Shown: positions 1,189 through 24,266 of the stretch, one piece after another
Numbering within the stretch: position 1 is the first letter of the stretch
Layout of the letters: every line of letters starts with the position of its first letter
Notes under the pieces: generated by a model
The model's input: only the letters and a program-made list of their open reading frames with translations
Database searches by the model: none
What the model was told of the DNA's origin: nothing
IMG/VR virus record: IMGVR_UViG_3300032216_001963
Coordinates: 1-24,266 of that record
From: a virus
Lineage: Duplodnaviria; Caudoviricetes
Reading direction: 5' to 3' (one strand)
Length of the DNA: 24,266 bases
Made by a program: the position numbers and the translations under genes

Positions 1189-1190
1189 TT

Positions 1191-2075
1191 ATGAAAAGTT
1201 TAAAAGACTATATTGCTGAAACCGAAACCCGTCAAGTAACCGAAGGCATACTTGACTGGGCCAAGAAGATCTTTACTCCTAAAGATCCTACACCACAGAC
1301 TCCTATTACTGCCGCTGATATTGATGCAGGTATGAAGGATCCTGAATTTGTTGCACAAATACAAAGTGCCGCGGCAGCGTTGGGCATGACTCCTGCTCAA
1401 CTAGTGGCACAGGTAAAACAACAACTCGGCCCAGCGCCAGCAGCAGCGCCAGCAGCCCCCGCAGCAGCATCACCGATAGCTGCGTACTCTCGAGCCTTAG
1501 CACCAGCTGCACCAGCTGCACCAGCCGCGCCTGCACCAGTCGCAGAAAGCATGGAAGCTGGTGGCACTTTTGAACATATCTGCAAAACATTCAAGCGTGA
1601 TGTTAAAGATTTTCAAACTACTGGCAACATGAGCGACCACTTGTATGATGCACTATATGACTACTACTTTGACGACATGCCATATGGCGTTAAGAAAGCT
1701 CGTGATGGTGATCCTTACGAGTGGATCGGTGACAGATTCCAAGAAGACCTAGAAGGTCACTTTGGAAGTGGCGTCGCTGAAATGGTACGGTTAGCCGGCT
1801 TGCCAACTGTGCAAGATGAAGGTATCGAAGACGAGCCAGCATTCTTGCGCAAAGGTAAAGCTGGTATAGGCAACTTCCCAGCACCTATTTTGCCACGCCC
1901 AGAAACCAAAATCAAACACTCACCAGTACGTCCAGAAAATATTCCAGCTGTGAAACGTGCAGGCCCAGTTAACCTAGACCAGGTGCGCGACAACAGTGAC
2001 AAAATGAGCGATTTAGCAACCCTACGCCGCATGGCCGGTTTGCCTGATCGTCCTGCACACGGATCTCCACTGTAA
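1191..2075 (+). CDS. Hypothetical protein, putative virion internal protein
   Basis: 294 aa. N-terminus MKSLKDYIAE resembles the T4 capsid-targeting sequence. Ala/Pro linker, a YFDDMPYGVKKARDGDPYEW module and two RxAGL motifs. Confidence 0.6.
   Translation: MKSLKDYIAETETRQVTEGILDWAKKIFTPKDPTPQTPITAADIDAGMKDPEFVAQIQSAAAALGMTPAQLVAQVKQQLGPAPAAAPAAPAAASPIAAYSRALAPAAPAAPAAPAPVAESMEAGGTFEHICKTFKRDVKDFQTTGNMSDHLYDALYDYYFDDMPYGVKKARDGDPYEWIGDRFQEDLEGHFGSGVAEMVRLAGLPTVQDEGIEDEPAFLRKGKAGIGNFPAPILPRPETKIKHSPVRPENIPAVKRAGPVNLDQVRDNSDKMSDLATLRRMAGLPDRPAHGSPL
1500..1539 (+). repeat. Imperfect 9-bp coding tandem repeat (gcaccagct)n encoding an (APA)n linker
   Basis: gcaccagctgcaccagctgcaccagccgcgcctgcacca lies inside the 1191-2075 ORF. 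Confidence 0.7.
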
Positions 2076-2464
2076 TGAAATCACGTGAGTTTATTACCGA
2101 ATTGAGCGTCAAGCCAGCTGGCAAGTTACATCCACATGTAGATGATGCGCATCAAGGTTCTATACTCATGCGTGATGTGGGTGGTTATGATCGCACATAT
2201 CATTTGAACCGTATCATGATGGCCGCAGCCATTGCCGATGGACAGAGCAAAAAACCAGTAGATATGGACGCCAGTAGCTTTATTGAAAAATACAACGTGG
2301 CTTTTCCCTACACTGACGAAGAACACCTGATGGTGTTCCAGGCTATGGCTACTATCCCCACTGACGGTGGTGAATTATCAAAACGTGCCAAGAGCAAAGA
2401 ACCCGACGATACCAACAAAACCAGTCCCTTGGTCAAGCGCCGGCGCAACCAATACGGAGTTTGA
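2075..2464 (+). CDS. Hypothetical protein, putative virion internal protein
   Basis: 129 aa, coupled to the upstream stop (TAATG). N-terminus MKSREFITE is CTS-like and the C-terminus is basic. Confidence 0.65.
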   Translation: MKSREFITELSVKPAGKLHPHVDDAHQGSILMRDVGGYDRTYHLNRIMMAAAIADGQSKKPVDMDASSFIEKYNVAFPYTDEEHLMVFQAMATIPTDGGELSKRAKSKEPDDTNKTSPLVKRRRNQYGV

Positions 2465-2465
2465 C

Positions 2466-2783
2466 ATGAAAATGATGCGGGTCACTGCGGCCATGTTCAA
2501 CGAACAAGAGCCAGAGATACCAGATGCAGTACTGAGCGAAAGCGACCCTATACAGAATCTCAAGCGCATGGCTGGTATGCCAACAGACAATCACAGCGCA
2601 GATGATTCGGGCAGAATGAGTCCAGTAGGTAACATTGCTGGTCCCAGCAACCAAGAGCGTCGCGAACTCGAAAGAGAATACAAAATAAAAACCGGAACCC
2701 CTGAATGGTTCCGGTTATGGTTTGCTAAACCAGACCTCACCGGCGAAGAGCCAGTGGATCCTAAGACTAAGCCCAGCCGTTGA
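2466..2783 (+). CDS. Hypothetical phage protein
   Basis: Start moved from 2367 to ATG 2466, which has GGAG at 2456-2459 and follows the previous stop directly. 105 aa with an LKRMAGM motif and IKTGTPEWFRLWF. Confidence 0.65.
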   Translation: MKMMRVTAAMFNEQEPEIPDAVLSESDPIQNLKRMAGMPTDNHSADDSGRMSPVGNIAGPSNQERRELEREYKIKTGTPEWFRLWFAKPDLTGEEPVDPKTKPSR

Positions 2784-4942: not shown

Positions 4943-6415
4943 ATGCGCGAAATAAACAAAATATCCCAAGACCTCTTTGACCTAATACGTTCACGATTTG
5001 AACATGTCAGTATCGGTAAAGATTCCGGTGAGAGTACCGACAATCCTGAAGACGCGAGATTCTTTAATTTTGATTATGTGACCAAGGGTGGGACAAATTA
5101 TGGTAATATCACCATGACCCTGGTTGATGATACTGCGCTCAAGGTCATGTTTACTAAAAAAATTGCCGATGATCTTGAACCAGAACAAAAGCAAGAGTGG
5201 TACGGATTCCTAAAAAATCTAAGAGGATTTGCCAAACGTAACATGTTACAGTTTGATGTTAGGGATCTCACTAAGAACAACTTGACAGTTAGAGATTTAA
5301 AACACGTGAGCAAGGTCAGTGGTGCATTGGACGCAGATGACTTAACCGAAAGCCGCATGTTTGGTAACACTCGTACCAGCTACCAGGACATTGGCGCAGT
5401 TAAATTGTTAGTGCGCCATACCGGACACATCAATCTCGAAGAACACGGCGCCCGCACTAGAAACATAGAAAGCATCTTTGTTGAAACTCAGCTTGGTGAA
5501 AGGTTCTTATTGCCTTTCAAACGCCTACCTGAAGCTAGAGCCATGGCACGTCATATCTCCAATGGCGGTATCATTCAAGACGAAATTGGGCAGCACATTG
5601 TTGAATGTGTAAATGAAATGAGCAGCATGCGTGTGTTTGTACGCAACATGAAACATAGAGTATTTGAAGATGCAGAAACCAGCGACATGGTAGAAGCAGC
5701 GATAGAGCGCTACACTGAACTGCGTACCAACTTGGTACACATGAGCGGACAGCGTGGTTACCAGCAGGTACAAGAAACCATAAAAACACAAACTCAATCC
5801 ATCATGGAAGATGAGTTTGACCTGGACCAACTCAAAGAGCGCTTTGTTAAACGGGTATTTGACGATCGCCTAAGCGAAGCACTACCGCATGTGTATCGCG
5901 CCTACCGCAATCGCCAACGTGCCATGGAGAATGCCTATGTTGCTGAGTTTGATAATTGGGCCAATGAGATAACAGAGGGCAATTGGCAGTTGCCTGATGA
6001 GGATATCGATCAAGAAGACTTAGCCGAAATAATGGGTAAACCACTAGCGGCTGGTATAAATGGATCAGATGCTATTGGGGCACTAGGTGACATTATTGGT
6101 TCAGACAGCCTAAGTGATGACCTATATGACTTTGCCCAAGAACAAGGTGCTGATGCAGATGCTCGAATTGTAGTAATTGGTTGGCTACGTGACAATCACT
6201 ACGAGGACTTGGCAGATGAATTTGCAGCCCAAATTCAACCACCTGCTGATCCCATGCAGCCCAATCCAAATCAATTGACTCCACAGGCCAACCAACCTGG
6301 TCCTCAGAGTCCACAGCAGGCTGCTGATGAAAAGGTGCCAACCGTGACACCACCCATGCCAAACGAGAGCATAGACCATTTACGCCGCCTAGCAGGTTTG
6401 GCGAAAAAAGTTTAA
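4943..6415 (+). CDS. Hypothetical protein (acidic, possibly virion-associated)
   Basis: 490 aa ORF behind a late-type promoter, with a P/Q-rich tail ending in LRRLAGL. No catalytic motif recognised. Confidence 0.7.
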   Translation: MREINKISQDLFDLIRSRFEHVSIGKDSGESTDNPEDARFFNFDYVTKGGTNYGNITMTLVDDTALKVMFTKKIADDLEPEQKQEWYGFLKNLRGFAKRNMLQFDVRDLTKNNLTVRDLKHVSKVSGALDADDLTESRMFGNTRTSYQDIGAVKLLVRHTGHINLEEHGARTRNIESIFVETQLGERFLLPFKRLPEARAMARHISNGGIIQDEIGQHIVECVNEMSSMRVFVRNMKHRVFEDAETSDMVEAAIERYTELRTNLVHMSGQRGYQQVQETIKTQTQSIMEDEFDLDQLKERFVKRVFDDRLSEALPHVYRAYRNRQRAMENAYVAEFDNWANEITEGNWQLPDEDIDQEDLAEIMGKPLAAGINGSDAIGALGDIIGSDSLSDDLYDFAQEQGADADARIVVIGWLRDNHYEDLADEFAAQIQPPADPMQPNPNQLTPQANQPGPQSPQQAADEKVPTVTPPMPNESIDHLRRLAGLAKKV

Positions 6416-11954: not shown

Positions 11955-12439
11955 AAATATATTTAGACATGGATGATGTTGTTGCTGATTGGATGGTGGC
12001 AGCTAGAGATATAGTTAAACGCAATTGGAATTACGGCGAACACATACCCGATGAAGATTGGGACAAGGTCAAAGCCAAGGAGCGTTTCTATCGCGACTTG
12101 CCGGTCAAACCCGGTGCTGAGTATCTAGTGGAATACTGCCGTGCAGCAGTTGACGCTGGGAGGGCTGATGGATTGTTCTTCCTGACAGCCCTACCACACG
12201 ACTACAGCGTACCCTATGCAGCACAAGACAAGGTCTGGTGGGCGCACGAACGTTTCCCGGGTATTCCTGTGTTCTTTGGACCATTCAGTCATGACAAATA
12301 CAAGCATTGTCGGCCGGGCGATATCTTGATTGACGACCGTACCAGCAACTGCGTGGAGTGGGAAAATGCAGGCGGACATGCACACATCTATCGCACCTGG
12401 GCAGAATGCCAACCTTGGCTTGAGGCGCAGTTGACATGA
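11951..12439 (+). CDS. HAD-family 5'(3')-deoxyribonucleotidase (NT5C-like)
   Basis: HAD motif I IYLDMDDVVADW, FLTA, K..W, and motif IV ILIDDR..N..EW..AGG. Confidence 0.85.
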   Translation: MKIYLDMDDVVADWMVAARDIVKRNWNYGEHIPDEDWDKVKAKERFYRDLPVKPGAEYLVEYCRAAVDAGRADGLFFLTALPHDYSVPYAAQDKVWWAHERFPGIPVFFGPFSHDKYKHCRPGDILIDDRTSNCVEWENAGGHAHIYRTWAECQPWLEAQLT

Positions 12440-12702
12440 TCAATATTGAGTTCAGTATATCCAATCCTTTCAGTGAAAGATTTGGTCATATACTACTGCG
12501 CCACGGATCTATTACTGGTAATAAATCATGGGAATTCAATATCTATCGTGGCACAAATATCTTCACCATGCTGTTTAGATATACTGCTAGACAAGATCAT
12601 GCTGGTCTGAGACTGCAATTTGGGCTGTTTGGTTACGAGTGCGATCTGCATGTATACGATACACGGCATTGGGACTATAAAGAAAATCGCTGGCACAGAT
12701 AG
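12436..12702 (+). CDS. Hypothetical phage protein
   Basis: 88 aa, aromatic and beta-rich (DHAG...YDTRHWDY), ATGA-coupled. Confidence 0.7.
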   Translation: MINIEFSISNPFSERFGHILLRHGSITGNKSWEFNIYRGTNIFTMLFRYTARQDHAGLRLQFGLFGYECDLHVYDTRHWDYKENRWHR

Positions 12703-12717
12703 ATAGTTAAATACTGT

Positions 12718-12969
12718 GTGGACTTTCAAACAACTGCAAGAGAACTGCTAGACGAGTGGGAACTGTATCGCACAGCCCGTCCTCGCGAGCATGTGCTCAG
12801 CATACAGTTTGATAAAGATCAGCTGGGCAATTGGGCCTTGCAACTGCGCCGGGCCATGATGTGGGGCAGTGCCATTGAACTAGCCGAAGCCTGCTATCAA
12901 TTCGAGCAGCGGCTCACACGTTTCAAAGACAACATAGTGATTGAACTGTTGACAAATGGTTCAGTCTAG
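12718..12969 (+). CDS. Hypothetical protein
   Basis: 83 aa, GTG start 4 nt after TTAAATA (12707-12713). Confidence 0.6.
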   Translation: MDFQTTARELLDEWELYRTARPREHVLSIQFDKDQLGNWALQLRRAMMWGSAIELAEACYQFEQRLTRFKDNIVIELLTNGSV

Positions 12970-12982
12970 ACATAAATACTTT

Positions 12983-14179
12983 ATGTCCGAAATCCGCAAA
13001 TTAATCAACATCGTTAGTGAAGCGCCAGATCCACTAAAGAAGGAAATCATCAACACCGTCAGGAGTATTGATGACGAAACCCTACTGTACAAGGTACTCA
13101 ACACCTTAAAAGCCGGCAACATAGAAGAACGCATAGCCAGTGTGATTGGTCACGATGCCGATGCCAAGGCATTCTTAGAGCGCATAACAGAAATCATCGT
13201 AAAAATTCCCGCACCTGTTGAAGAAAAGAATGCCTTCTTGGATCAGTATTCAAAGGGCATAATCAACACCAAGTTGTTGCTCGGTGGCAAAGCTAACAAT
13301 TTCCTACAACTAGTTGGCGGCAATAATTTTGCCAAAGAACTGTTTAAAATATTAAGCACCACCCTGGTATCACAGGGTGTAGGTCCTGGCGAAGTTGCCT
13401 TGGCGGTACTGAGTCCAGAGATCAAGTGGAGTGGCCGTGCAGTAGGTGGCGGTGACGTACAAATTGGCAAGCTGGCAGTAGAAGTTAAAACCAGTGTCAG
13501 CAGCGGCGGCCGCTGGATCAATGCACGTAAAGCTAGAATGAACATGGCTGGCATTGAACAAGCCATTGTTGATGCCGAAATTGAAACCCTTAAAAAGGTC
13601 TACAAACAGAAAAATCCCATGCCCATGGGCTTGCCGGCTCGCCTGAATCCCGAATACTGGGTCACCAAGGTGCGTCCGCAAATTGATCCCAAGTTCCTAG
13701 AAGACTGTGTTGAGCACATGGCCAATGGGCTGTTTAATCACGTGGACAATTCACAGTATCAAACTGCGCTGTATAATGGTAGTGCTGCTGAAATCAAGGA
13801 AGCCATCCTTGCTGTGGGATTTGAAAACTACAAAGCCTACTCACACTTTGACGGTATCTTGATGATGGACGTGGGTAGTGAAACAGCACGTTACTTTAAA
13901 GACTATGACAGCATGGCAGGTAGTATCAAGTCGGACACTCCTTATATCTACGCACCAGAAGCCGAAGGCATGCCCAAGGTATCTCTAATGCCAGTCGAAG
14001 GCGTTAGTGCCACACCTGCCAAAGGCAAAGGCAAGCCCGGTTCGGTACCAGCACAGGACGACACGCCGGCAGCAATGAAGAATCCCGAAGCCAGCATGAG
14101 TGCCGATGATATAGCACCAGACGCACCTGCTGAGCCCAAACCACTAGCAGATCGAATAGGTAGACGCAAAAGAGCTTGA
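12983..14179 (+). CDS. Putative PD-(D/E)xK nuclease-fold protein
   Basis: Start moved to ATG 12983 after ATAAATA 12972-12978. GVGPGEVAL...GGDVQIGKLAVEVKT fits E...D...ExK. N-terminus MSEIRKLINIVSE, low-complexity tail. Confidence 0.55.
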   Translation: MSEIRKLINIVSEAPDPLKKEIINTVRSIDDETLLYKVLNTLKAGNIEERIASVIGHDADAKAFLERITEIIVKIPAPVEEKNAFLDQYSKGIINTKLLLGGKANNFLQLVGGNNFAKELFKILSTTLVSQGVGPGEVALAVLSPEIKWSGRAVGGGDVQIGKLAVEVKTSVSSGGRWINARKARMNMAGIEQAIVDAEIETLKKVYKQKNPMPMGLPARLNPEYWVTKVRPQIDPKFLEDCVEHMANGLFNHVDNSQYQTALYNGSAAEIKEAILAVGFENYKAYSHFDGILMMDVGSETARYFKDYDSMAGSIKSDTPYIYAPEAEGMPKVSLMPVEGVSATPAKGKGKPGSVPAQDDTPAAMKNPEASMSADDIAPDAPAEPKPLADRIGRRKRA

Positions 14180-14204
14180 CAACCAGCTAGCGTTCTAGTA
14201 CAAT
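14176..14204 (+). promoter_or_regulatory. sigma70 promoter upstream of the tRNA
   Basis: TTGACA 14176-14181, 17-nt spacer, TACAAT 14199-14204. Confidence 0.75.
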
Positions 14205-14213
14205 AGACTTAAT

Positions 14214-14290
14214 GCGTTGATAGCTCAGTTGGTTAGAGCAAGCGACTCATAATCGCTGGGTCACAGGTTCGAGCCCTGTTCGACGCACCA
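14214..14290 (+). tRNA. tRNA with CAU anticodon (elongator Met or Ile2), CCA encoded
   Basis: Acceptor GCGTTGA/TCGACGC, D arm GCTC-AGTTGGTTA-GAGC, anticodon arm AGCGA-CTCATAA-TCGCT (CAT 14248-14250), T arm ACAGG-TTCGAGC-CCTGT, ACCA end. Confidence 0.95.
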
Positions 14291-14302
14291 TTTACTTATA
14301 AA

Positions 14303-14848
14303 ATGAACATTTATACCATAAATGATTTATCCAATGTCAAGGTAATAGAAATCTTAAAAAAAGAGTTCAGTCAAATAACTGACCCTGACATAATCTCCAA
14401 CTACCACCCCGACTATGCCCACGTACCGGGCAATTTGTTCTACATACTAGAGCAAGGCCGTTACCTAGTAGGAAAATATTACGTGATAGTTGATGCTGAC
14501 GATAAATTCGTTGCCAGCGCAGGGTGGAATCGTTACGAACTTGATCATACTGTTGCTCTGCTGCTGACCAGGATGTATGTGAGTCCGCAGCACAGAACAC
14601 AATATTACATAGGTAATCTAGTGTTACCAAACATGTTGGTAGAAGCTGCCGATTACCAGCATAAATGGATCACTTGCAACGAGCACAACAGCATGATCTA
14701 CCAATGGTTTTATAGAGCATCGCAGGGCCGTCGCACCACCATGTTTACCAATTGGCCCGATATCTACAAAAAATTCAAGCCAATTGGTAAAAAGACTATA
14801 TACTATACAGAGCAATATGTTGCCAAATTTAATGAGACCATGACATGA
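14303..14848 (+). CDS. GNAT-fold N-acyltransferase
   Basis: YYVIVD..KFVASAGW...LLTRMYVSPQHR matches GNAT beta strands and motif A. Confidence 0.65.
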   Translation: MNIYTINDLSNVKVIEILKKEFSQITDPDIISNYHPDYAHVPGNLFYILEQGRYLVGKYYVIVDADDKFVASAGWNRYELDHTVALLLTRMYVSPQHRTQYYIGNLVLPNMLVEAADYQHKWITCNEHNSMIYQWFYRASQGRRTTMFTNWPDIYKKFKPIGKKTIYYTEQYVAKFNETMT

Positions 14849-15060
14849 CTGATGATGAAAAAATAAAATTTATCGAAGACGCTATACTGCAAGTAACTAA
14901 GAAATCAATAAAAATAAAACCAGAGGACCGACTACTAGATCTAACTCTGGATTCTCTTGATATTGTAGAGCTGGTGATGTATTACGAAGACAAGATCGGT
15001 ATTGAGCTAGATCCAGAAGTTAGGGTCATGACAGTCAATGATATGATGGTGTTGATGTAA
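14845..15060 (+). CDS. Acyl carrier protein
   Basis: 71 aa, acidic, LDLTLDSLDIVEL with the phosphopantetheine site Ser37, then EDKIGIEL and TVND. Confidence 0.9.
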   Translation: MTDDEKIKFIEDAILQVTKKSIKIKPEDRLLDLTLDSLDIVELVMYYEDKIGIELDPEVRVMTVNDMMVLM

Positions 15061-15998
15061 TGAATTTTACGCATAATAATCATTTAACCTATAGCATTGG
15101 TGATAGATTATTTGGTGTTAGGGAAACGCCTTACGAAAAATTTAAGGTCGCCGCGGGCAAAATTGATCTTGAATACTATAAAACCAGTAACTGGTTAAAT
15201 GAGCAGTATCGCACAGCCGCTATCATATCGCAAGAATTTGGTAAAGATCTGGTGTTGATGTTTAGTGGGGGAACCGACAGTGAAATTTGTCTCCGTGCCT
15301 TGCTGCATATTGGAATAAAACCCAGAACTGTATTCATTAAATTCAAAAATAATTATAATTTAGGTGATTATACGATAGCTCAACAAATTGCCGACGAACT
15401 TGATATAGAATTAGAAATTGCAGAAATTGATGTAATCGACTTTTACCGCAGCGGACAAGCATACGAACTAGCAGGCGAAATTCATTGCCGGCAAATAGCA
15501 TACCTGACAGTATATAAAACTATTTTGGATATGCAAATGCCAGCAGTTATGGGGGGAGAAATGTTGCTAAGGCGGCACGTTGATCCTATTGGCAGCAAAT
15601 GGTATTATTGTTTTAGGGAAAACGAAGATGCTAGTGCCATGCGTTTTGGGTTGAAATACAATATCCCACTAGTCAATGAGTGGTTTAGTTACACACCTGA
15701 GATGATGGGCTATTACATCGAGCATCCATCGATACAACGACTAATAACTGAAAGATTTAATTATAAGTTGGCTAGTGTTAGTTCTAAAAACGCCATACTA
15801 CGAACACTAATGCCGGCAATAGTTGATAAAGTGAAAACACACGGTTACGAGAATCTAATGGGATTCAATGGCGAGACTTATAGAAGATTAAATCAAAGTC
15901 ATGTTAAGAGGTTAGCATCCAACTTAGATGGCATTTTTATTGATGAATTAATGATTCAATTATTTGGAGAAGATTATGTCGGTGGTCAAGCTCGATAG
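15060..15998 (+). CDS. PP-loop (adenine nucleotide alpha-hydrolase) ATPase, asparagine-synthetase-like or amide ligase
   Basis: VLMFSGGTDSE PP-loop, AQQIADELDIEL, and C-terminal K.ILR...K.K.HGYE. No glutaminase domain. Confidence 0.7.
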   Translation: MNFTHNNHLTYSIGDRLFGVRETPYEKFKVAAGKIDLEYYKTSNWLNEQYRTAAIISQEFGKDLVLMFSGGTDSEICLRALLHIGIKPRTVFIKFKNNYNLGDYTIAQQIADELDIELEIAEIDVIDFYRSGQAYELAGEIHCRQIAYLTVYKTILDMQMPAVMGGEMLLRRHVDPIGSKWYYCFRENEDASAMRFGLKYNIPLVNEWFSYTPEMMGYYIEHPSIQRLITERFNYKLASVSSKNAILRTLMPAIVDKVKTHGYENLMGFNGETYRRLNQSHVKRLASNLDGIFIDELMIQLFGEDYVGGQAR

Positions 15999-16575
15999 TT
16001 CGCATGCAGAAGCAGTCAAGGGCCTGTTTCAATCTAAAAAATATATGGGTGTTGATATCAACAGCCCCGATTTTGCCAACAACGGCAATGGTGAAATATT
16101 CAATGCAACATTGTATAACATTTTTAGCTCTAACTATCTTGGAGGATTGGAAGACTTTCATGCATATGGCTATTTAGAAAACGACCAAGTGGTTGCACTT
16201 ATTTCTTTTTATGAGAGTCACGAAGAGCCCGCCTGGTATTACACCATATATCGCAGCAGCGGCGACAATAATAAATTAAGAGATGTGCTTGATGCAGTAA
16301 TAGCCCACAATGAAGCTAAAGGTAGGTTAAAATTTTATACTTTGGTACATCAAGCGCACAGCAAGCTGCTGAGAAGATTTCATTGGAGTAAATACAATAA
16401 CGACAGGTACGGATACTTTGATGAATTTCTAGTTCCTAGTAAGAACAAATGTTTTTATACTAACTCATGGGAATTACTGTTCAAGAGATTTCTAGTGCCC
16501 AAGGATAGTGTAGTACGCTGTAACTATTTAAAGCAAGAATATAGAACAGTCTTGCCAATTGGCGGTAATTTGTAA
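15976..16575 (+). CDS. Hypothetical protein, possible second GNAT-like fold
   Basis: ATG 15976 with GGAG RBS. MSVVKLDSSHAEAVKGLF...HAYGYLENDQVVALISF follows the GNAT N-terminal pattern, but motif A is weak. Confidence 0.5.
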   Translation: MSVVKLDSSHAEAVKGLFQSKKYMGVDINSPDFANNGNGEIFNATLYNIFSSNYLGGLEDFHAYGYLENDQVVALISFYESHEEPAWYYTIYRSSGDNNKLRDVLDAVIAHNEAKGRLKFYTLVHQAHSKLLRRFHWSKYNNDRYGYFDEFLVPSKNKCFYTNSWELLFKRFLVPKDSVVRCNYLKQEYRTVLPIGGNL

Positions 16576-17363
16576 TGTTTAAAAATATATCTAAGTCATT
16601 TTGGTTTCAATTTGTCCCGGGCATGCTATTGGGATTCATAACCATATTCCTACTGGCAACAGGAGTTATTCCTGCTTACTATCTAATTGCTACGTTTATC
16701 ATGTGGATACTAGTATGCGGACTTGGGATAGCAGTGGGATATCATAGGATTTTTAGTCATAGGGCAATCAGTTTACCTACTTGGAAAGAAAATATAATAT
16801 TATTCTTTGCCACATTTGCAGGACAAGGTGCCAGCATATTTTGGGTAGCATTGCACCGCGGATACCATCATCCCTATTCTGACACAGAAAAAGATATACA
16901 CAGTCCCATAGCCTATAACAAGTATCAGGCATTTGTTGGTTGGTATCATAAAATCACTGAGGCATCAAATTTTATAAATTTAAAGTATGCAGTCGACCTA
17001 CTAAGAAAACCCAATCATATATGGTTCCACAAACATCATTTGACTATACTTTGGGGTGTTCCTTTGCTAGTAGCATTAGTAGATTGGCGGCTGGCACTGA
17101 CTGCTTTTTGTCTAGTTACCTGCATAGGACTCACACAGGATAATCTAGTCAATGTATTTGGGCACTACCGGGGCTGGTTTGGTTACAGGAACTTTGATAC
17201 TAGAGATAACAGCCAAAATAATTTTATACTGGGCTATCTTGCATGGGGGCAAGGTTGGCACAACAATCATCACCATGCTCCGGGATCTTTTGATTTCGGA
17301 TCAGGTGTGAGTAAAAACTGGTGGGAGTGGGACCCTGCTAGGATTTTTAAACCATTCTTATAA
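16575..17363 (+). CDS. Membrane fatty acid desaturase (delta-9/OLE1-like)
   Basis: Three His boxes HRIFSH, HRGYHH and GWHNNHH, hydrophobic segments, and WWEWDP. Confidence 0.93.
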   Translation: MFKNISKSFWFQFVPGMLLGFITIFLLATGVIPAYYLIATFIMWILVCGLGIAVGYHRIFSHRAISLPTWKENIILFFATFAGQGASIFWVALHRGYHHPYSDTEKDIHSPIAYNKYQAFVGWYHKITEASNFINLKYAVDLLRKPNHIWFHKHHLTILWGVPLLVALVDWRLALTAFCLVTCIGLTQDNLVNVFGHYRGWFGYRNFDTRDNSQNNFILGYLAWGQGWHNNHHHAPGSFDFGSGVSKNWWEWDPARIFKPFL

Positions 17364-17364
17364 C

Positions 17365-17907
17365 ATGACTGTTTATTTCAAAAAAATTGATTCTAGTATT
17401 TTGCCACTTCCGCCACTGGATCCTGATAGTATCAAAGGTGAAATGAAATTTCATTACGGCCATCCTCGCTATTTTGAAATAATTGATCAAGCCTATTTAG
17501 AATCGTTAACAAGAGTATTTAAAATACCACCTGTACACTACTTCTTAGTTGAAGGTCATGGTCATTTGCTGCCTCACTATGATAATGGACAAGATAGTTG
17601 TCTTAATTTTTATATTCGCCCAGGCGGTTATACTACTAGTTTTTGGAAACCAAAAGAAAATGCTAAAAAACGAGTGAGCAGCAGATATGATGCAGCAACT
17701 GATACCACTCGGGAAGTTGCCATTGGATACCACTACGAAGATTTAATATTAATAGATCAATTCCAGGCACAAGATGGAGAAGCATATTTTTTAAATATAG
17801 CAGAAATTCATTCAGTGGAGGGCGCCGCCCCAGAAAAGCCCAGGGCATTTATACAATTACAATGGGACATGACCATGGACGAATTGTTAACAGCACTAGA
17901 TTTTTAA
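17365..17907 (+). CDS. Putative Fe(II)/2OG-type (DSBH) oxygenase
   Basis: LLPHYD, CLNFYI, AYFLNIAEIHSV and PRAFIQL give HxD...H...R. Confidence 0.6.
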   Translation: MTVYFKKIDSSILPLPPLDPDSIKGEMKFHYGHPRYFEIIDQAYLESLTRVFKIPPVHYFLVEGHGHLLPHYDNGQDSCLNFYIRPGGYTTSFWKPKENAKKRVSSRYDAATDTTREVAIGYHYEDLILIDQFQAQDGEAYFLNIAEIHSVEGAAPEKPRAFIQLQWDMTMDELLTALDF

Positions 17908-17910
17908 ACA

Positions 17911-18696
17911 ATGAAAATTCACAAGTTAACTCCCGCCATTGGCGCCGAAATCTCCGGCGTTGATTTGTCACAGCCGCTGACACCCACAACTGTGTTGGAT
18001 TTAAAAAATGCATTAATTGATAATCGCATGATATTTTTCAGAGATCAAAAAATAGAGCCCGAGTACCTACCCAAAGTTATTACTCAATTTGGTGAAATGT
18101 ATATACACCCATGGGAAAAAAAATACAACAACAATCCCGAAATTGGATATGTGTTTTCGGGAGAACACACGACGTTTACTGATGTTGATGGAAAATTCAT
18201 GCACTCCGATAGAACAGCAGCGGCAGAACCTCCCAGGACCTCCATGTTGTACATTACTGAATGCCCGCCTGTTGGTGGTGACACAATATTTGTCAACACC
18301 TCTAAGGTCTATAATCAGATGGATGATGGTCAAAAATCATTTCTTTCTTCATTATCGTCGTTGCATGTTGCTCCTGGCAAAAATAGAGACTCAGGTGATT
18401 ACACTGTGGGAGCAACCCATCCAGTCATCGCCACACGGCCCGAAACACAAGAAAAATATTTAAATGTCAATGAGATGGCTTCAGTCAGCATAACACGTTT
18501 GAAATCAATGGAAAGTAATAGTTTGTTATCAAGACTTTTCCACACACTGCGTCATCCTCAATATTCTTGTAGACTGCGTTGGAGTCCCAATACTGTAGCT
18601 TGGTGGGATAATTTTGGTTCACAACATCAGGCCATATGGGACTACTATCCTGCCCGTCGAGTTGGTTACAGGGTTCTTTCTAAAAATCTTTATTGA
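17911..18696 (+). CDS. TauD/TfdA-family Fe(II)/2OG dioxygenase
   Basis: LTPAIGAEISGVDL, IFFRDQ, HSD, PPVGGDTIF, HPVI..RPET, WDN...QH.A and R..YRV. Confidence 0.92.
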   Translation: MKIHKLTPAIGAEISGVDLSQPLTPTTVLDLKNALIDNRMIFFRDQKIEPEYLPKVITQFGEMYIHPWEKKYNNNPEIGYVFSGEHTTFTDVDGKFMHSDRTAAAEPPRTSMLYITECPPVGGDTIFVNTSKVYNQMDDGQKSFLSSLSSLHVAPGKNRDSGDYTVGATHPVIATRPETQEKYLNVNEMASVSITRLKSMESNSLLSRLFHTLRHPQYSCRLRWSPNTVAWWDNFGSQHQAIWDYYPARRVGYRVLSKNLY

Positions 18697-19352
18697 ATGG
18701 CGTAGGCATTACCTATCTCTAAAGATTTAATGCTGACCCAAGGTGGTTGTGTTATAATCCATTGAATGGTTTCTGCTAGATATTCTGCGCTCATGGGCGT
18801 GTAAGATTTAAAATTATAATTTTCATAAACATCTTTTGACGGGCTAGCTGGTCCCCCAGAAGAAATCATGTTGGTGTCTACCACTTGCGGTTCTAGGCTA
18901 GTTATCATAACAGGCTTTTCCCGGTAATTTGATAGATTATTGCTTAAATTCTTTATAAACAACTTAGACGCCTTGTAACATAATTCACCAATGCCAGATT
19001 TTGGTCCACCCGATATATTAGCTGCCCAGCTGGATATGTTAATTATGTATCCTGATGACATTTTTTTATAAAAACTCACCAATAAAAATCCTGCCGATGC
19101 TACGTTGGTATTTAATAATTCGTTTACAGGCACACTGCCGTTGACTCCTGCATTGTTAATGAACACTTGGGGAGTATACTTATTAACTAGCATGCTTCTG
19201 AATTCGGGATTGTTTATGTCTCCAACCTCAGTTACAAATTCTCCAGGAGTTCTAGACACTCCTATAATTTCATATGAATCTTTAAAATGTTTTGCGCAGG
19301 CCAGACCTATGCCGCGGCTGGTGCCAGTTATTAACATTATTGGTTTAGACAT
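18690..19352 (-). CDS. Short-chain dehydrogenase/reductase (SDR)
   Basis: ITGTSRGIG, INNAG, INISS, catalytic YKASK, and P..VDT. Confidence 0.9.
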   Translation of the reverse strand: MSKPIMLITGTSRGIGLACAKHFKDSYEIIGVSRTPGEFVTEVGDINNPEFRSMLVNKYTPQVFINNAGVNGSVPVNELLNTNVASAGFLLVSFYKKMSSGYIINISSWAANISGGPKSGIGELCYKASKLFIKNLSNNLSNYREKPVMITSLEPQVVDTNMISSGGPASPSKDVYENYNFKSYTPMSAEYLAETIQWIITQPPWVSIKSLEIGNAYAIQ

Positions 19353-20010
19353 TTTTTGTTTTCTCTAGTATTTCTTCCCAGGGATGATGTATTCGTGCGC
19401 TGACGATCAATCTTCTCTCGCCGTCTCGTTCTATGCAATGCGCAACTTCGCTTCTTACAAAATCACCAGACTGTCCTTTTTTAGAAAGTTTATCTGTCGA
19501 ATAGTCTGCAGGGCCTATTAAGTCGAATTTTTCTTTGGCAGTATTGCCAATTACTTGCCACCTTTTAATGGTATCGGTCTCAATATATTCAATCATGTCA
19601 TGATCCATGCCTATGTTCCACCAATGCATTTTAGAATTTTCGTTGCCATACACTAATACATTAAACCTGCCAGGTAGAGGTTTATCCCATGGGGTATTGG
19701 CACGATTGAATCCAGGAGAATCAATGTGTGGATTTTCTATAGAAATTGTTTTAGATTCAATTTTATAAACAAACATCTGAATATAGGTATCAGGTAATCC
19801 TAGTCTGCTTAAAAAATTTGTCAATTGCACAGCCGGCGGCGACGTTTGAAATGCTACGGTGTCACTGTGAATGGGATCTTTAAAAATTGGACCCCCTGCC
19901 TCAGGATAAGTCCTATCAAAATTATCAATGATGGCAGGGCAATGTGTATCAAGCCAGGCCATTGATTCCTCATTGAATTTAAAATCTACATTAACATGCG
20001 GTTGTATCAT
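19345..20010 (-). CDS. Putative Fe(II)/2OG-type oxygenase (paralog A)
   Basis: NPHIDSPG, RFNVLV, FVRSEVAHCI, RRLIVSAR give HxD...H...RxxxS. Confidence 0.6.
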   Translation of the reverse strand: MIQPHVNVDFKFNEESMAWLDTHCPAIIDNFDRTYPEAGGPIFKDPIHSDTVAFQTSPPAVQLTNFLSRLGLPDTYIQMFVYKIESKTISIENPHIDSPGFNRANTPWDKPLPGRFNVLVYGNENSKMHWWNIGMDHDMIEYIETDTIKRWQVIGNTAKEKFDLIGPADYSTDKLSKKGQSGDFVRSEVAHCIERDGERRLIVSARIHHPWEEILEKTKNV

Positions 20011-20648
20011 TGTTTTGTTTTCTCTAGTATTTCTTCCCAGGGGTGGTGTATTCGTGCGCTGACGATCAACCGTCTTTCTCCATCACGTTCTATAGAATGA
20101 ACAATGTCAGTCCTTACAAAATCGCCAGTCTGGTCAAATTTAGACAAGTTATCAGCCGAGTAATCTGGTGGTCCTATTAGATCAAATTTTTCCTTCATAG
20201 TATCGCCAATCACTTGCCACCTCTTGCCAAAATTTGGAACATCTACGAATTGAATTGCAGGATGGTGTACATCCCGATCCCACCAATGCATTTTAGAATT
20301 TTCGTTGCCATAAACAAGTACATTAAATCTGCCAGGCAACGGCTGCATGCCCGGAGTATCGATATGTGGGTTTTCTATAGAAATAGTCTTAGATTGCACC
20401 TTATATACAAACATGTGAACATAGGTGTTAGTTAGTCCTAAATCGTTTAAGAATTTTTTTACTTGTACAGCTGGTGGTGATAATTGAAAAGCAACAGCAT
20501 CATCGTGCCCGGGACTGTTAAAAATTGGTCCACCGGATTCTGGAAACTTCTCGTCAAAATTTTTGATGATCGAAGCGCAATGAATATCAAACCATAATTT
20601 TGAGTCCTCATTGAATTTAAATTTCACGCTGGTGTGGGGTGGTATCAT
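20007..20648 (-). CDS. Putative Fe(II)/2OG-type oxygenase (paralog B)
   Basis: NPHIDTPG, RFNVLV, FVRTDIVHSI, RRLIVSAR. Clear tandem paralog of 19345-20010. Confidence 0.6.
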   Translation of the reverse strand: MIPPHTSVKFKFNEDSKLWFDIHCASIIKNFDEKFPESGGPIFNSPGHDDAVAFQLSPPAVQVKKFLNDLGLTNTYVHMFVYKVQSKTISIENPHIDTPGMQPLPGRFNVLVYGNENSKMHWWDRDVHHPAIQFVDVPNFGKRWQVIGDTMKEKFDLIGPPDYSADNLSKFDQTGDFVRTDIVHSIERDGERRLIVSARIHHPWEEILEKTKQ

Positions 20649-20654
20649 TGTTAA

Positions 20655-20662
20655 TATTTATC
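20655..20662 (-). promoter_or_regulatory. T4-late-like promoter GATAAATA (minus strand)
   Basis: tatttatc on the plus strand, 6 nt upstream of the 20648 ATG. Confidence 0.6.
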
Positions 20663-20706
20663 AGGTTATGGATACATGTTAAATTGCAATCTGGCGGTAA
20701 ACACAG

Positions 20707-20714
20707 TATAAATA
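20707..20714 (+). promoter_or_regulatory. T4 late promoter consensus TATAAATA
   Basis: Exact TATAAATA in the divergent intergenic region before 20737. Confidence 0.65.
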
Positions 20715-20736
20715 TTAGTACTCGTTTTAATAGATT

Positions 20737-21336
20737 ATGCCAACATATCCCAAAAATCGTCAGTGGTCAGTACTAGAGGGATACTCTCCAACAGAAAACC
20801 GTACTAGGCTAATGCAAAACCTTACAGGGTTTGAAGATAGTTACACTGAGCTGATTCACAATCATCATGAATTCGATCTCCACTGCGGCGCACAAACTCC
20901 TCTTGCACCGCGGGCGCTGGCTTATTTACAGACTGGACCCCTAAGAGAGTGTGTGACTCTTTACCTAGTCGATAACAGTCAAAACGAGAAATTAGTTGAT
21001 GCGACCCAGTTTTCTAAAACATTTGCACTTTTGCATGATCTCAAGAGCCACGTAGAGGCAGGCAATACTAGAAGGCTTACAAAAGCATACGTGACAAAAT
21101 TAGGTGCCGGCAAACAGATATATCCACACAGTGATACTGCGGCTCCATATTTTAACAATATCGAACGCTATCAATTCTATTATACAGGTACTAGTGAAGT
21201 CTCACAGATAATAGATAATACTCTGTTTCCTGTTAAACCCGGCGATCTATATTATTTTGATCATAGGCAAATACACTCGTATCACAATAATAGTTCTATA
21301 GACTTGATATTGATGGTATTTGATTTAGCTATATAG
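20737..21336 (+). CDS. Aspartyl/asparaginyl beta-hydroxylase-like Fe(II)/2OG oxygenase
   Basis: AYVTKLGAGKQIYPHSD, RYQ, GDLYYFDHRQIHSYHNNS, LILMVFD. Confidence 0.7.
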   Translation: MPTYPKNRQWSVLEGYSPTENRTRLMQNLTGFEDSYTELIHNHHEFDLHCGAQTPLAPRALAYLQTGPLRECVTLYLVDNSQNEKLVDATQFSKTFALLHDLKSHVEAGNTRRLTKAYVTKLGAGKQIYPHSDTAAPYFNNIERYQFYYTGTSEVSQIIDNTLFPVKPGDLYYFDHRQIHSYHNNSSIDLILMVFDLAI

Positions 21337-21338
21337 AC

Positions 21339-21965
21339 ATGTTTGATGCAGATTTGTTATTTAAAAAAATAGCTGACAGTGTGCCGGCATTGTTTGATAT
21401 TGAAGAACTGGAAAAAACTTTTATAGAAGACCAGTTCAATCCAATTGAAGAACCGATAATACATCCGTCAGGAAAACCACATTGGCAGTATTATATAAAA
21501 ACACAGCTCTATGTGGCAAGAAACATGTCTAACACATTTCCAAGTGAGATGAATAAGATTTGTGAACAACTAAAATGTATTCAGAACCAGTGCAAGGCTG
21601 ACGATTTTCTTAATAAGAATTCGCTAGTGAAAGAATTCTGTTCGAGCCCGATCACAGCAGAAAATATAAGTTTTATAAAAATACCACCAAAAAATAAAAA
21701 TGCTACAGGGCACACGATACAGCCCCACTGTGATATCGGACGCAAGCTGGCTCTCAATATAGGTTTAAAAAATTCCAACTCTTGCACTACTCATATAATC
21801 GATTCTACGACTGCTACTGATTTTTCAAACCATGAGCAGTATTCATATAACATGAATGATGGGGAGGCATGGTTGCTTAAAGTGTCAAATGCACATGCAG
21901 TAACATCTCACAGTGATACTGTTTCTAGATATATACTAACTTATACAGTAGCAAATATAAAATAA
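21339..21965 (+). CDS. Putative Fe(II)/2OG-type (DSBH) oxygenase
   Basis: IQPHCD.GRKLALNI, GEAWLLKVSNAHAV and RYILT. Same motif layout as 17365-17907. Confidence 0.6.
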   Translation: MFDADLLFKKIADSVPALFDIEELEKTFIEDQFNPIEEPIIHPSGKPHWQYYIKTQLYVARNMSNTFPSEMNKICEQLKCIQNQCKADDFLNKNSLVKEFCSSPITAENISFIKIPPKNKNATGHTIQPHCDIGRKLALNIGLKNSNSCTTHIIDSTTATDFSNHEQYSYNMNDGEAWLLKVSNAHAVTSHSDTVSRYILTYTVANIK

Positions 21966-21976
21966 AAGGATTAGCC

Positions 21977-22654
21977 ATGATTAATCACAAATCAATTAGA
22001 CTAGCAGACGCACAAACGATTTTAGCAGAAATAGAAAACGACACCAATCCAAATTGGTTCCGTCCCAAAGGGAAACCTGGTAGTCATGGTGTTGTCCCTG
22101 GAGATTTTGACTTGGGTGCAATGAAATTTATTAATCGAAATTTAAATTATTTTTATTTTATAAACATGATATCACACGCACTTAAAAATGATTTTGAATA
22201 CAACCCCAGTTTCCCTAGAGCGTTGGATTTTTGTAACAAAATGCGCAGCGTCCTTGACGAGCCAGGACCGTTTGGTAGGATGTGTGTGTGGAATTTAGAT
22301 GCATACTGTAAATTATTGCCGCACGTGGATGCATGGGAATATCACAAACAAATTAAGAGATATATACTATGTGTTAGTACACATGCCGGAGATGAAGTTT
22401 TGGTGCGCATTGCCGGCGAAAAAGTTGATATTGAACAGGGATTATTATTTAATTTTGATCCTTCGACGGATGTACACGAGTTTGTAAATTATACCAATCG
22501 TCCATTTTATTTTATTGGGTTTGACTACTGGAACGTTGAAAAACTGGCCCAGTCAAGCGCAAAATATAATATCACTAGTGATACAGTAATACCATACAGC
22601 GAAGGCTACTACGGTGGGCATGGGTATACTACTGAGTTTATGAGCCCCGAATAA
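21977..22654 (+). CDS. Aspartyl/asparaginyl beta-hydroxylase-like Fe(II)/2OG oxygenase
   Basis: GRMCVWNL...LLPHVD..EYH..IKRY, GLLFNFD...HEFVN, FIGFD. AAGGA RBS. Confidence 0.65.
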   Translation: MINHKSIRLADAQTILAEIENDTNPNWFRPKGKPGSHGVVPGDFDLGAMKFINRNLNYFYFINMISHALKNDFEYNPSFPRALDFCNKMRSVLDEPGPFGRMCVWNLDAYCKLLPHVDAWEYHKQIKRYILCVSTHAGDEVLVRIAGEKVDIEQGLLFNFDPSTDVHEFVNYTNRPFYFIGFDYWNVEKLAQSSAKYNITSDTVIPYSEGYYGGHGYTTEFMSPE

Positions 22655-22669
22655 CAAAGAAAGAAAATT

Positions 22670-24010
22670 ATGTTTTGTAAAACAGTTTGGAATGGACTAC
22701 ACATCTTGCCTGATGGATACATCAGGCTCTGCTCAATTGGACAAAATACTGATCCAAAATTAGACATGCAACGTTGCCGCGATCGCGACGGTAATGTCAT
22801 GCATATACTGACGCACAGTATACAGGATATCATGAATAGCGACAAGCACAGGGAAGTCAGACGCCTGAATGTTGCTGATCCCACAGCTTGGAGCCCACAT
22901 TGCGACTGCTGCGAAAACAGAGAAATCGTTACTGGATTTGACAGGAGTCATAAAAATAAAAGTCGCAGAGTTTACCTCATGAGGATTGAAGATGATGTGG
23001 CTGCAACTGAAGAAAATCATCTCAGCAACGGCATGTCCGAAGATGGCAGCATTGACTGGATGCCCAGTTCATTGGATATCAGATTTGGCAATCTGTGCAA
23101 TCAGAAATGAATTATGTGTAGTCCTGTATACAGCAATCTGTGGTATGAGGAATATTCCAATTACTATGGCGATTTAAAATTTGGGCAAGGGAATAAAATT
23201 GTTGTAAAGAAAGACGAGCTAACTAAAAAATGGATTGAACCTATGGAATTGCAGTGGTATGATGATCCTAGATGGTGGCCCAAATTTGAATCAATGATGC
23301 CGTACCTAAAGCACATTTACATTACCGGCGGTGAGCCCATGGTTACTCCTGCTCATGATGTCATGCTGGATAAATTAATTGAATCGGGTTATGCAAAGAA
23401 TATCCTGTTAGAGTATGATACTAATTGCAGTGCAGTCAATGATAAAATAGCCCAACGTTGGTTCCACTTTAAGAAAGTAGAAATACGTGGTAGCATGGAT
23501 TCAATTGAGCAGGAATACGAAATCATTAGATTCCCGGGCAATTGGGACAAATTCCAAAAAAATGTTAAAAAATTAAAACAGTATGAAATTGATTCAAACC
23601 GACAAATCGAGCTGCTGGCATTGAGTACTTGTTTTCAGATGTCAACTATGTGGACTATCATGGAAGCTGAAGAGTGGTGCAAATCTGTTGGAATTCCATT
23701 CCATATGCGTTTCCTTGAAGGGCCAAAGATGCATTCAGTCACTTCCCTATCAGACGATGAAAAAATGGCATTAATAAATCACTACGAGAAATACACCGAT
23801 ACCAGTGAAAAAGCCGTCATGATAGTTAGACACTTAAAAAATCACATGGGACCTAAATTTGGCGACCCCAATGAAGTGAAAAAATTTATTAAATTTATGG
23901 ATTATCTAGATACAACTAGATCCACTAGCTGGAAAACAGTATTCCCTAAAGTTTACGAATTAATCAAGCATTACCAAGTAGACGTCCCAGCTACTGTGCA
24001 GACTATCTAA
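22670..24010 (+). CDS. Radical SAM protein with N-terminal SPASM/twitch-like Cys domain, in-frame TGA at codon 147 (candidate selenocysteine)
   Basis: ORFs 22670-23110 and 23114-24010 are in the same frame, separated only by TGA+ATT. Joined they read LDIRFGNLC-NQK-*-IM-CSP (CxxxCxxC), then YITGGEP, YDTN and SMDS. N-terminal C...W..LHILPDGYIRLC...CDCC. 446 aa if read through. Confidence 0.85.
23122..23151 (+). promoter_or_regulatory. Stem-loop downstream of the in-frame UGA, candidate bacterial SECIS
   Basis: UCCUGUAUACAG-CAAU-CUGUG(G)UAU(G)AGGA: 12 pairs by hand (2 G-U, 2 bulged G), starting after an 11-nt spacer from the UGA at 23108-23110. Confidence 0.45.
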
Positions 24011-24020
24011 AATACAAACT

Positions 24021-24028
24021 GATAAATA
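24021..24028 (+). promoter_or_regulatory. T4-late-like promoter GATAAATA
   Basis: Intergenic, upstream of the AAGGAG RBS (24037-24042) and ATG 24049. Confidence 0.6.
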
Positions 24029-24048
24029 ATTACATTAAGGAGATACGC

Positions 24049-24266
24049 ATGTACATCATAACAAAGACAACTACTAAGCCAGCAGAAGCACAATGGTTCA
24101 GCCAAGCTAATCCAGCAGTATACGCTCAATTACGTGCATGGGAACAAGCACAGCCAGGTTTTTGCCATATCATTGCAACTAGCAAAACTGATACGGAAGC
24201 CGTTCAAGAGTTTGAGTTTAAGACTGAAGCTGACTATCAGGCATATTTGGTTGCTCTAGAAACCAA
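24049..24266 (+). CDS. Small protein, possible ABM-like dimeric alpha-beta barrel (3' truncated, not in ORF track)
   Basis: Strong RBS, open to the window end: MYIITKTTTKPAEAQWFSQANPAVYAQLRAWEQAQPGFCHIIATSKTDTEAVQEFEFKTEADYQAYLVALET. QPGF and F.TEADYQAY recall the ABM pattern. Confidence 0.6.
   Translation, partial: MYIITKTTTKPAEAQWFSQANPAVYAQLRAWEQAQPGFCHIIATSKTDTEAVQEFEFKTEADYQAYLVALET

Follow-up and report, generated by a model that had tools for sequence, protein, structure and literature searches.

What does a phage build with 15 consecutive genes, nearly all of them enzyme-like? It has long been recognised that large aquatic phages can carry enzyme-rich islands, and the question is raised here by IMG/VR record IMGVR_UViG_3300032216_001963, a viral contig identical in extent to the whole stretch of 24,266 nucleotides (nt) that we analysed (hereafter, the window). 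An initial annotation had placed an enzyme cluster at 14303–24266, on the same contig as genes for terminase, gp32 (single-stranded DNA-binding protein), UvsX and UvsY and continuing past the window edge, and had read it as a dedicated viral pathway working on a carrier protein. The cluster itself was borne out: 15 genes occupy this interval with intergenic gaps of −23 to +88 nt (Table 1), the left part of the contig encodes the four named proteins as well as a virion structural protein, and the last gene is cut off by the window end, to which overlapping contigs of run X1 extend and beyond. A longer contig, with the rest of the island, is recorded at 33,190 nt. Overall, we find that the island is genuine and widespread, an uncharacterised phage cassette of predicted acyl-amide chemistry that is composed of a four-enzyme core and exchangeable tailoring genes.

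A four-enzyme core recurs across phage loci

The core comprises an asparagine-synthetase-like PP-loop ligase, two GNAT-fold proteins (GNAT-A and GNAT-B) and a membrane fatty-acid desaturase. Searches with the ligase recovered 74 loci in IMG/VR and at least 775 clustered ligase relatives in public metagenomes. The 75 loci (window included) were reduced to 59 at 95% ligase identity, from which the 49 with at least 4 kb on each side were counted and 10 dropped; core slots and the acyl carrier protein (ACP) were counted within 4 kb of the ligase, and accessories anywhere in the locus. Among these 49 ligase-bearing loci, GNAT-B was always present (immediately after the ligase in 48), the desaturase was found in 48, often with paralogues, and GNAT-A in 37, with a distant homologue (family f24, HHalign probability 91%) in 9 others and never both, so that this slot is filled in 46. 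The idea that the genes fail to co-occur across related phages is thus contradicted for the core. The four slots persist over 50–75% ligase identity and altered gene orders, with one-for-one GNAT replacement, and the pairwise identities of the four proteins covary (rho 0.21–0.48, 0/300 permutations); between core identities and two backbone genes we found no covariation (rho 0.15 and 0.01, n = 17).

The 15 genes do not form one fixed unit, as had been supposed, since only these four slots are near-universal. The TauD subfamily of the window occurs in 3 of the 49 loci (any TauD in 23) and the short-chain dehydrogenase/reductase (SDR) in 4. Twitch-domain radical SAM proteins are encoded by 13 loci and B12-type ones by 16; 25 loci have additional PP-loop paralogues, and 43 have one or more related oxygenases. 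Nor does a pathway built on a phage carrier protein hold: the ACP is present in 22 loci and absent from 27, its distribution on the ligase tree (58 rows) needs 11 gains or losses, at least 8 of them forced by well-supported branches, and no ACP of the same family, AcpS, AMP-ligase or ketosynthase was found in a 524-kb core-bearing record rated complete. When present, the ACP covaries in identity with the ligase (rho 0.46), desaturase (0.40) and GNAT-B (0.34).

Evolutionarily, the non-synonymous rate (pN) is below the synonymous rate (pS) for all 14 complete genes (compared with locus L022, or L012 for GNAT-A), for example 0.18 vs. 0.89 for the ligase and 0.06 vs. 0.56 for TauD. The weakest constraint was seen for the gene at 21339 (0.48 vs. 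0.75), compared only with a 33%-identical paralogue. Co-occurrence, purifying selection and predicted folds together support a dedicated viral pathway of acyl transfer and amide formation, which upholds the earlier proposal in part.

Predicted activities of the core enzymes

Pfam and NCBIfam scans of the window proteins named the ACP, desaturase, TauD, SDR and twitch radical SAM, thereby giving family support to these identities (PF00550, PF00487, PF02668, PF00106 and NF033640, respectively), and returned AspH-like matches for two genes. The PP-loop protein and both GNATs had weak or no family matches; their identities stand instead on predicted folds for the ligase and GNAT-B, and on language-model features, a weak Pfam match and motifs for GNAT-A.

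The ligase contains a PP-loop synthetase domain whose closest folds belong to the AsnB, beta-lactam synthetase and carbapenam synthetase class (PDB 9b6c, 1ct9, 1jgt, 1q15; 10–15% identity), enzymes that act on small molecules, with TilS, TtuA, MnmA and QueC ranked well below AsnB. Unlike this class, the phage protein is only 312 amino acids (aa) long, is coupled to a GNAT-fold gene, and showed neither an N-terminal glutaminase domain nor the N-terminal Cys in alignments (it begins MNFTHNN, with the PP-loop at residue 69). From the modelled fold, we consider it a candidate ATP-dependent, carboxylate-adenylating and amide-forming enzyme. No full-length ligase was found outside viral or unassigned sequence in our searches (GTDB pattern scans and 400 genomes of one class).

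The Q/RxxGxG/A motif located between beta4 and alpha3 in acetyl-CoA-dependent GNATs was found in 0 of 69 GNAT-B and 0 of 53 GNAT-A sequences. GNAT-A retains a VxPxxR-type Arg98 and Asn129, while GNAT-B has a short unconserved loop at the usual position of the CoA-binding loop, and several conserved basic residues. The desaturase combines membrane segments (hydropathy 2.41) with the three His boxes HRIFSH (57), HRGYHH (94) and HNNHHH (229), as defined for membrane di-iron fatty-acid desaturases, and matches PF00487 above cut-off. Natural fusions also occur: ACP with GNAT-A in L029 (9237–10004) and, read by eye, a GNAT-B-like with an oxygenase-like domain in protein P0257.

No PF00501 fatty acyl-AMP/acyl-ACP ligase was detected in the window, past whose end the island continues; this family is present in two of five large records, remote from the cassette. 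Two carrier phages, L101 and L102 (G407 and G410), have an AMP-binding enzyme at a distance from the cassette, and in L102 it adjoins a twitch radical SAM gene. In L045, an AcpS-type phosphopantetheinyl transferase sits inside the island (14536–14895) beside ligase and desaturase paralogues; the same family occurs in L059, and in both loci the ACP is farther away (in L045, a second ACP).

The cassette is exchanged between phages

The island is hosted by an uncultured large lake-type phage. Its terminase best matches those of Pseudomonas phage PA5oct and kin (54% identity), followed by Phosso, Atu_ph07 and GAP32-like jumbo phages, and is 61–72% identical to the terminases of three of the five large cassette-bearing records (the other two are partial and without match). 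Short related pieces are present in lake-water metagenomes (three runs from two studies).

Continuity was checked across position 14290, where G+C content falls from 46.6% before a tRNA to 38.6% after it. A 7,690-nt contig of run X1 spans 11958–19647 with zero differences and an even depth of 10.1; X1 is possibly the source sample, and this match is therefore not independent. Independent support comes from loci L028, L032 and L033, in which the same upstream gene family lies directly 5′ of the same core. The UvsX–UvsY backbone also carries the core in L005, L032 and L033, and many backbone proteins of L033 are 96–100% identical to those of the window, vs. 28–61% for the core proteins (where BLAST aligned). 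Conversely, the flank of L022 is unrelated, yet 11 island genes keep the same order and orientation at 61–88% identity. Together, these observations indicate that the island is real and that it is swapped, in cassette fashion, at a site marked by a tRNA; a CAT-tRNA-like sequence also directly precedes the core in L032 and L033. Between 20283 and 24266, the X1 contig and the window disagree at 8 positions, which points to assembly errors or strain mixture there.

The 407-aa protein encoded just before the island (12956–14179) has no family match, and its ~30% identical homologues stand immediately before the cassette in L028, L032 and L033, so that it may relate to cassette exchange. Near residues 165–178 it carries a motif that we take to resemble a PD-(D/E)xK nuclease site.

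Tailoring genes and predicted timing

All seven oxygenases proposed initially carry an HxD...H triad and, judging from their residues, five look like complete 2-oxoglutarate (2OG)-Fe(II) enzymes. The proteins encoded at 20737 and 21977 lack the usual distal Arg, which 42 of 75 family members possess, and may represent a different type of cupin. No membrane-like segment was seen in the tailoring enzymes of the window. Two tandem paralogous oxygenases (19345–20648) correspond to a single copy in L022, a local duplication.

The radical SAM protein has an N-terminal twitch domain and a CxxxCxxC motif, its C-terminal part alone scoring 189.8 against a cut-off of 170 (NF033640), and is a member of that family without essential difference. 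In the assembly, an in-frame TGA (23108–23110) splits the gene at the second Cys of this motif. As the X1 contig (probable source run) has C at 23110 (codon TGC) and the Cys is kept in 18 of 18 other radical SAM matches in the loci, we read a single 446-aa gene and regard the TGA as a sequence error or minor allele; selenocysteine was ruled out, none of the 18 having a stop there. In the cultured jumbo phage RsoM2USA (MG752970.1; L103:17048–22624), a twitch radical SAM is grouped with three DUF6071 genes and a carbamoyltransferase; all bear the annotation "hypothetical".

The last gene (24049) belongs to a ~100-aa family that 26 of 75 loci encode; its members share a T-x-T-R-P motif at the N terminus and usually follow an ATAAATA (8 of 9 in one subfamily). 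It looks weakly IsdI/Dabb-barrel-like (IsdI-type match at E 0.035, a lead only), and could either act as an enzyme of the pathway or serve as the acceptor on virions.

In the window, ATAAATA is found in front of each of two tailoring operons, at 20661 (−) and 20708 (+), and again at 24022. Across all loci, the shorter TAAATA precedes 150 of 234 operon-first island genes; the rate in shuffles is 13%, and of 14 replication genes only 1 has it. Within a control of 32 hand-chosen proteins scanned in the 524-kb relative, the motif stands before 6 of the 7 head or tail genes named by PHROG, compared with 1 of 8 genes of DNA metabolism. ATAAATA was predicted as the late promoter of structural genes in phage CBB (PMC5259590), and the sections covered of the PA5oct account give only sigma-70-like motifs (PMC7318152). 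On these motifs, the tailoring operons appear to be under predicted late promoters, and the island may be expressed late.

What the cassette may make

Substrates and step order can be proposed from gene content, predicted folds and catalytic motifs. Our leading, still tentative, reading is that the four-gene core would act late in infection to build an unsaturated acyl group, linked through an amide, for attachment to proteins or glycans of progeny virions. An acyl thioester would be supplied by host acyl-ACP or acyl-CoA, or by the optional phage ACP; the desaturase would oxidise the acyl chain, GNAT-A would N-acylate an amine, and the ligase would adenylate a carboxylate and form a second amide without glutamine, with GNAT-B, coupled to the ligase, handing over or receiving the acyl group. 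Swappable oxygenases, SDR and radical SAM would tailor the product by variable hydroxylation, reduction and radical chemistry, and the finished group would be attached to a surface structure of new virions.

We favour virion attachment because of the late-type motifs, the exchange of the cassette, the soluble tailoring enzymes, the genes that follow the core in L032 and L033 (an epimerase accompanied by others of sugar-pathway type and, in L033, by a glycosyltransferase), and the one cultured partial analogue that we found, pelagiphage Mosig (MT647606), in which a GNAT-A-like gene (E 1.7e-9), a desaturase, a TauD, two AspH-like and radical-SAM-type genes adjoin tail-fibre genes. Baseplate-type genes also flank some loci. 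It is tempting, if rather speculative, to extend this to widespread large freshwater phages lipidating their own particles, with exchangeable oxygenase and radical SAM cassettes diversifying the coat in a way comparable to bacterial O-antigen islands. A product on virions would represent a little-known layer of phage surface chemistry, relevant to host range and to survival in water.

Several observations weigh against attachment to virions. The loci were all chosen via the ligase, so that the counts above are conditional on it; ACP and GNAT-A identities do not covary (rho 0.07, 74/300 permutations); and linkage to any one acceptor gene is not consistent, many loci lying amid nrd and tRNA genes. 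The ligase and GNAT-B were not found in Mosig. Concerning timing, TAAATA also precedes 126 of 429 (29%) other operon-first genes, a first and weaker structural-gene control had it in only 5 of 23, and only 29 of 63 core operons carry it. The window core itself lacks the motif and sits behind a sigma-70-like match and the tRNA. Moreover, 83 TAAATA motifs are only 6–10 nt upstream of a start codon, and the motif could thus be something other than a promoter. Finally, a membrane desaturase fits a lipid product better.

Such a product is the content of the strongest, though somewhat unlikely, alternative, in which the core would produce an unsaturated aminolipid or N-acyl amide, either free or resident in the membrane, that alters the host envelope, lysis or neighbouring cells. 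It would account for the near-constant desaturase with its paralogues, for the covariation of the ACP with three core proteins and for ligase folds closest to small-molecule enzymes; AspH-like enzymes such as LpxO and OlsC hydroxylate lipids. The absence of membrane segments from the tailoring oxygenases and the lack of any match to an OlsA-type acyltransferase or OlsB in the window proteins or 55 neighbour representatives count against it, and the late-type motifs suit a product needed by progeny. If the product is a free lipid, phages would be making a natural product by means of new amide-forming enzymes. The conserved core (~2.9 kb, or 3.1 kb with the ACP) is directly expressible and assayable.

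We consider it improbable that unrelated host-takeover enzymes have collected at this site and act singly, through protein acetylation, membrane fluidity or 2OG turnover. The strong variation of the accessories would suit such a site, as would the absence of covariation between radical SAM and ligase identities (rho 0.14, 37/300 permutations), and host 2OG has been suggested as the target of cyanophage 2OG oxygenases (PMC3037559). On the opposing side are the persistence of the four slots through sequence divergence, reordering and GNAT replacement, and the 11 genes retained in order in L022.

More improbable still is a role in modifying nucleic acid, either phage DNA bases or tRNA. PP-loop and radical SAM enzymes also occur in nucleic-acid modification, a tRNA is adjacent and many loci lie near tRNA arrays, and GNAT-B has its conserved basic residues. 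The GNAT Mom and the 2OG oxygenase AlkB belong to such systems as well (PMC7824862).

Lastly, a host fragment misjoined to a phage contig, which the abrupt G+C fall at a tRNA might suggest and which the initial annotation named as one possible refutation, is already close to refuted by the single evenly covered contig across 14290, the ligase at 74 viral loci, the shared upstream family and UvsX–UvsY backbone of other core-bearing loci, and the failure to find a full-length ligase in the GTDB scans or the 400 sampled genomes.

Relation to known systems

JamABC-type and polyyne thiotemplated desaturation cassettes combine a small ACP adjoining a membrane desaturase with a fatty acyl-AMP or acyl-ACP ligase. 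The window shares the membrane desaturase and an ACP with its phosphopantetheine serine, but the ACP is optional across loci (22 of 49), whereas an AsnB-like ligase and two GNATs form the core; a JamABC-type identity was rejected on the defining acyl-AMP ligase gene, none being adjacent or in the window. The ornithine-lipid and aminolipid pathway (OlsB/OlsA/OlsC/OlsD/OlsE) uses a GNAT-fold N-acyltransferase, AspH-like hydroxylases and a di-iron membrane enzyme, a logic that the phage cassette shares, except that its hydroxylases are soluble and its amide ligase obligatory. An ornithine-lipid identity was likewise rejected, on the lack of Pfam or NCBIfam matches to OlsA-type acyltransferases and OlsB noted above. 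The RRE (B1) and transglutaminase-like protease (B2) of lasso-peptide clusters had no Pfam match in 30 window proteins or the 55 neighbour representatives.

Among phages, the jumbo cyanophage S-SSM6a and pelagimyophages have similarly variable islands of 2OG-Fe(II)/cupin oxygenases and other tailoring enzymes (PMC7824862, PMC7029224). The S-SSM6a cluster, predicted to decorate a capsule or make a metabolite (Iyer et al., 2021; PMC7824862), is centred on carbamoyltransferases, a methylase and a halogenase, and the sections of that paper covered do not mention a ligase/GNAT-B pair. Radical SAM cassettes are what varies in the host-recognition islands of pelagimyophages, whose freshwater members also encode a desaturase and FabF (PMC7029224). 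Cyanophages P-HM1 and P-HM2 carry ACP, AcpS, AspH and TauD (PMC3037559), an ACP island is described for flavobacterial jumbo phages (PMC13573597), and the Mosig announcement, in the parts covered, does not discuss its island (PMC7892664). In the main-text passages covered, we found no published description of the ligase/GNAT/desaturase core, nor a chemical product assigned to such phage enzyme islands.

Gene layout and neighbouring features

The SDR and two oxygenases are encoded opposite to the other genes of the island, on the minus strand, which implies at least three transcription units (Table 1).

Table 1. Features of the island and its left edge (window coordinates).
Feature	Position	Strand	Remarks
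Sigma-70-like promoter match	14176..14204	+	11/12 consensus match only; precedes tRNA and core operon
tRNA, CAT anticodon	14214..14290	+	Island left edge, at G+C drop; ARAGORN call Met(CAT)
GNAT-A, 181 aa, core	14303..14848	+	R90, R98, N129 invariant; predicted acyl-thioester N-acyltransferase
Acyl carrier protein, 71 aa, optional	14845..15060	+	PF00550 above cut-off; DSL serine
Asparagine-synthetase-like PP-loop ligase, 312 aa, core	15060..15998	+	Synthetase domain only
GNAT-B, 199 aa, core	15976..16575	+	GNAT fold; C182, E150, R144, R171, R190 invariant
Membrane fatty-acid desaturase, 262 aa, core	16575..17363	+	PF00487; three His boxes
2OG-Fe(II)-type oxygenase, accessory	17365..17907	+	H71, D73, H149, R160
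TauD-family dioxygenase, accessory	17911..18696	+	PF02668; H98, D100, H239
Short-chain dehydrogenase/reductase, accessory	18690..19352	-	PF00106; TGxxxGIG, NNAG, YxxxK
2OG-Fe(II)-type oxygenase	19345..20010	-	H95, D97, H191, R199/200; tandem paralogue of 20007 gene
2OG-Fe(II)-type oxygenase	20007..20648	-	H95, D97, H184, R192/193
Back-to-back ATAAATA motifs	20655..20714		20661 (-), 20708 (+); predicted late promoters of two tailoring operons
AspH-like cupin	20737..21336	+	H131, D133, H180; without usual distal Arg
2OG-Fe(II)-type oxygenase	21339..21965	+	H130, D132, H186, R197
AspH-like cupin	21977..22654	+	H116, D118, H167; without usual distal Arg
Twitch-domain radical SAM, 446 aa	22670..24010	+	NF033640; in-frame TGA 23108-23110 in assembly
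Start of ~100-aa protein	24049..24266	+	Cut by window end; behind ATAAATA at 24022

The anticodon arm of the tRNA presumably resembles that of a lysidine-type Ile2 tRNA. In two carrier phages, tmRNA genes lie close to the cassette (L004:1083–1531, L011:4656–5049), and solute-binding proteins of TctC/Bug type are repeatedly encoded close to the island, with 20 of them across 17 loci (for example, L040:13554–14453). On the left arm of the window (1–2783 and 4943–6415), several proteins contain or end in a repeated RR(L/M)AG(L/M) motif.

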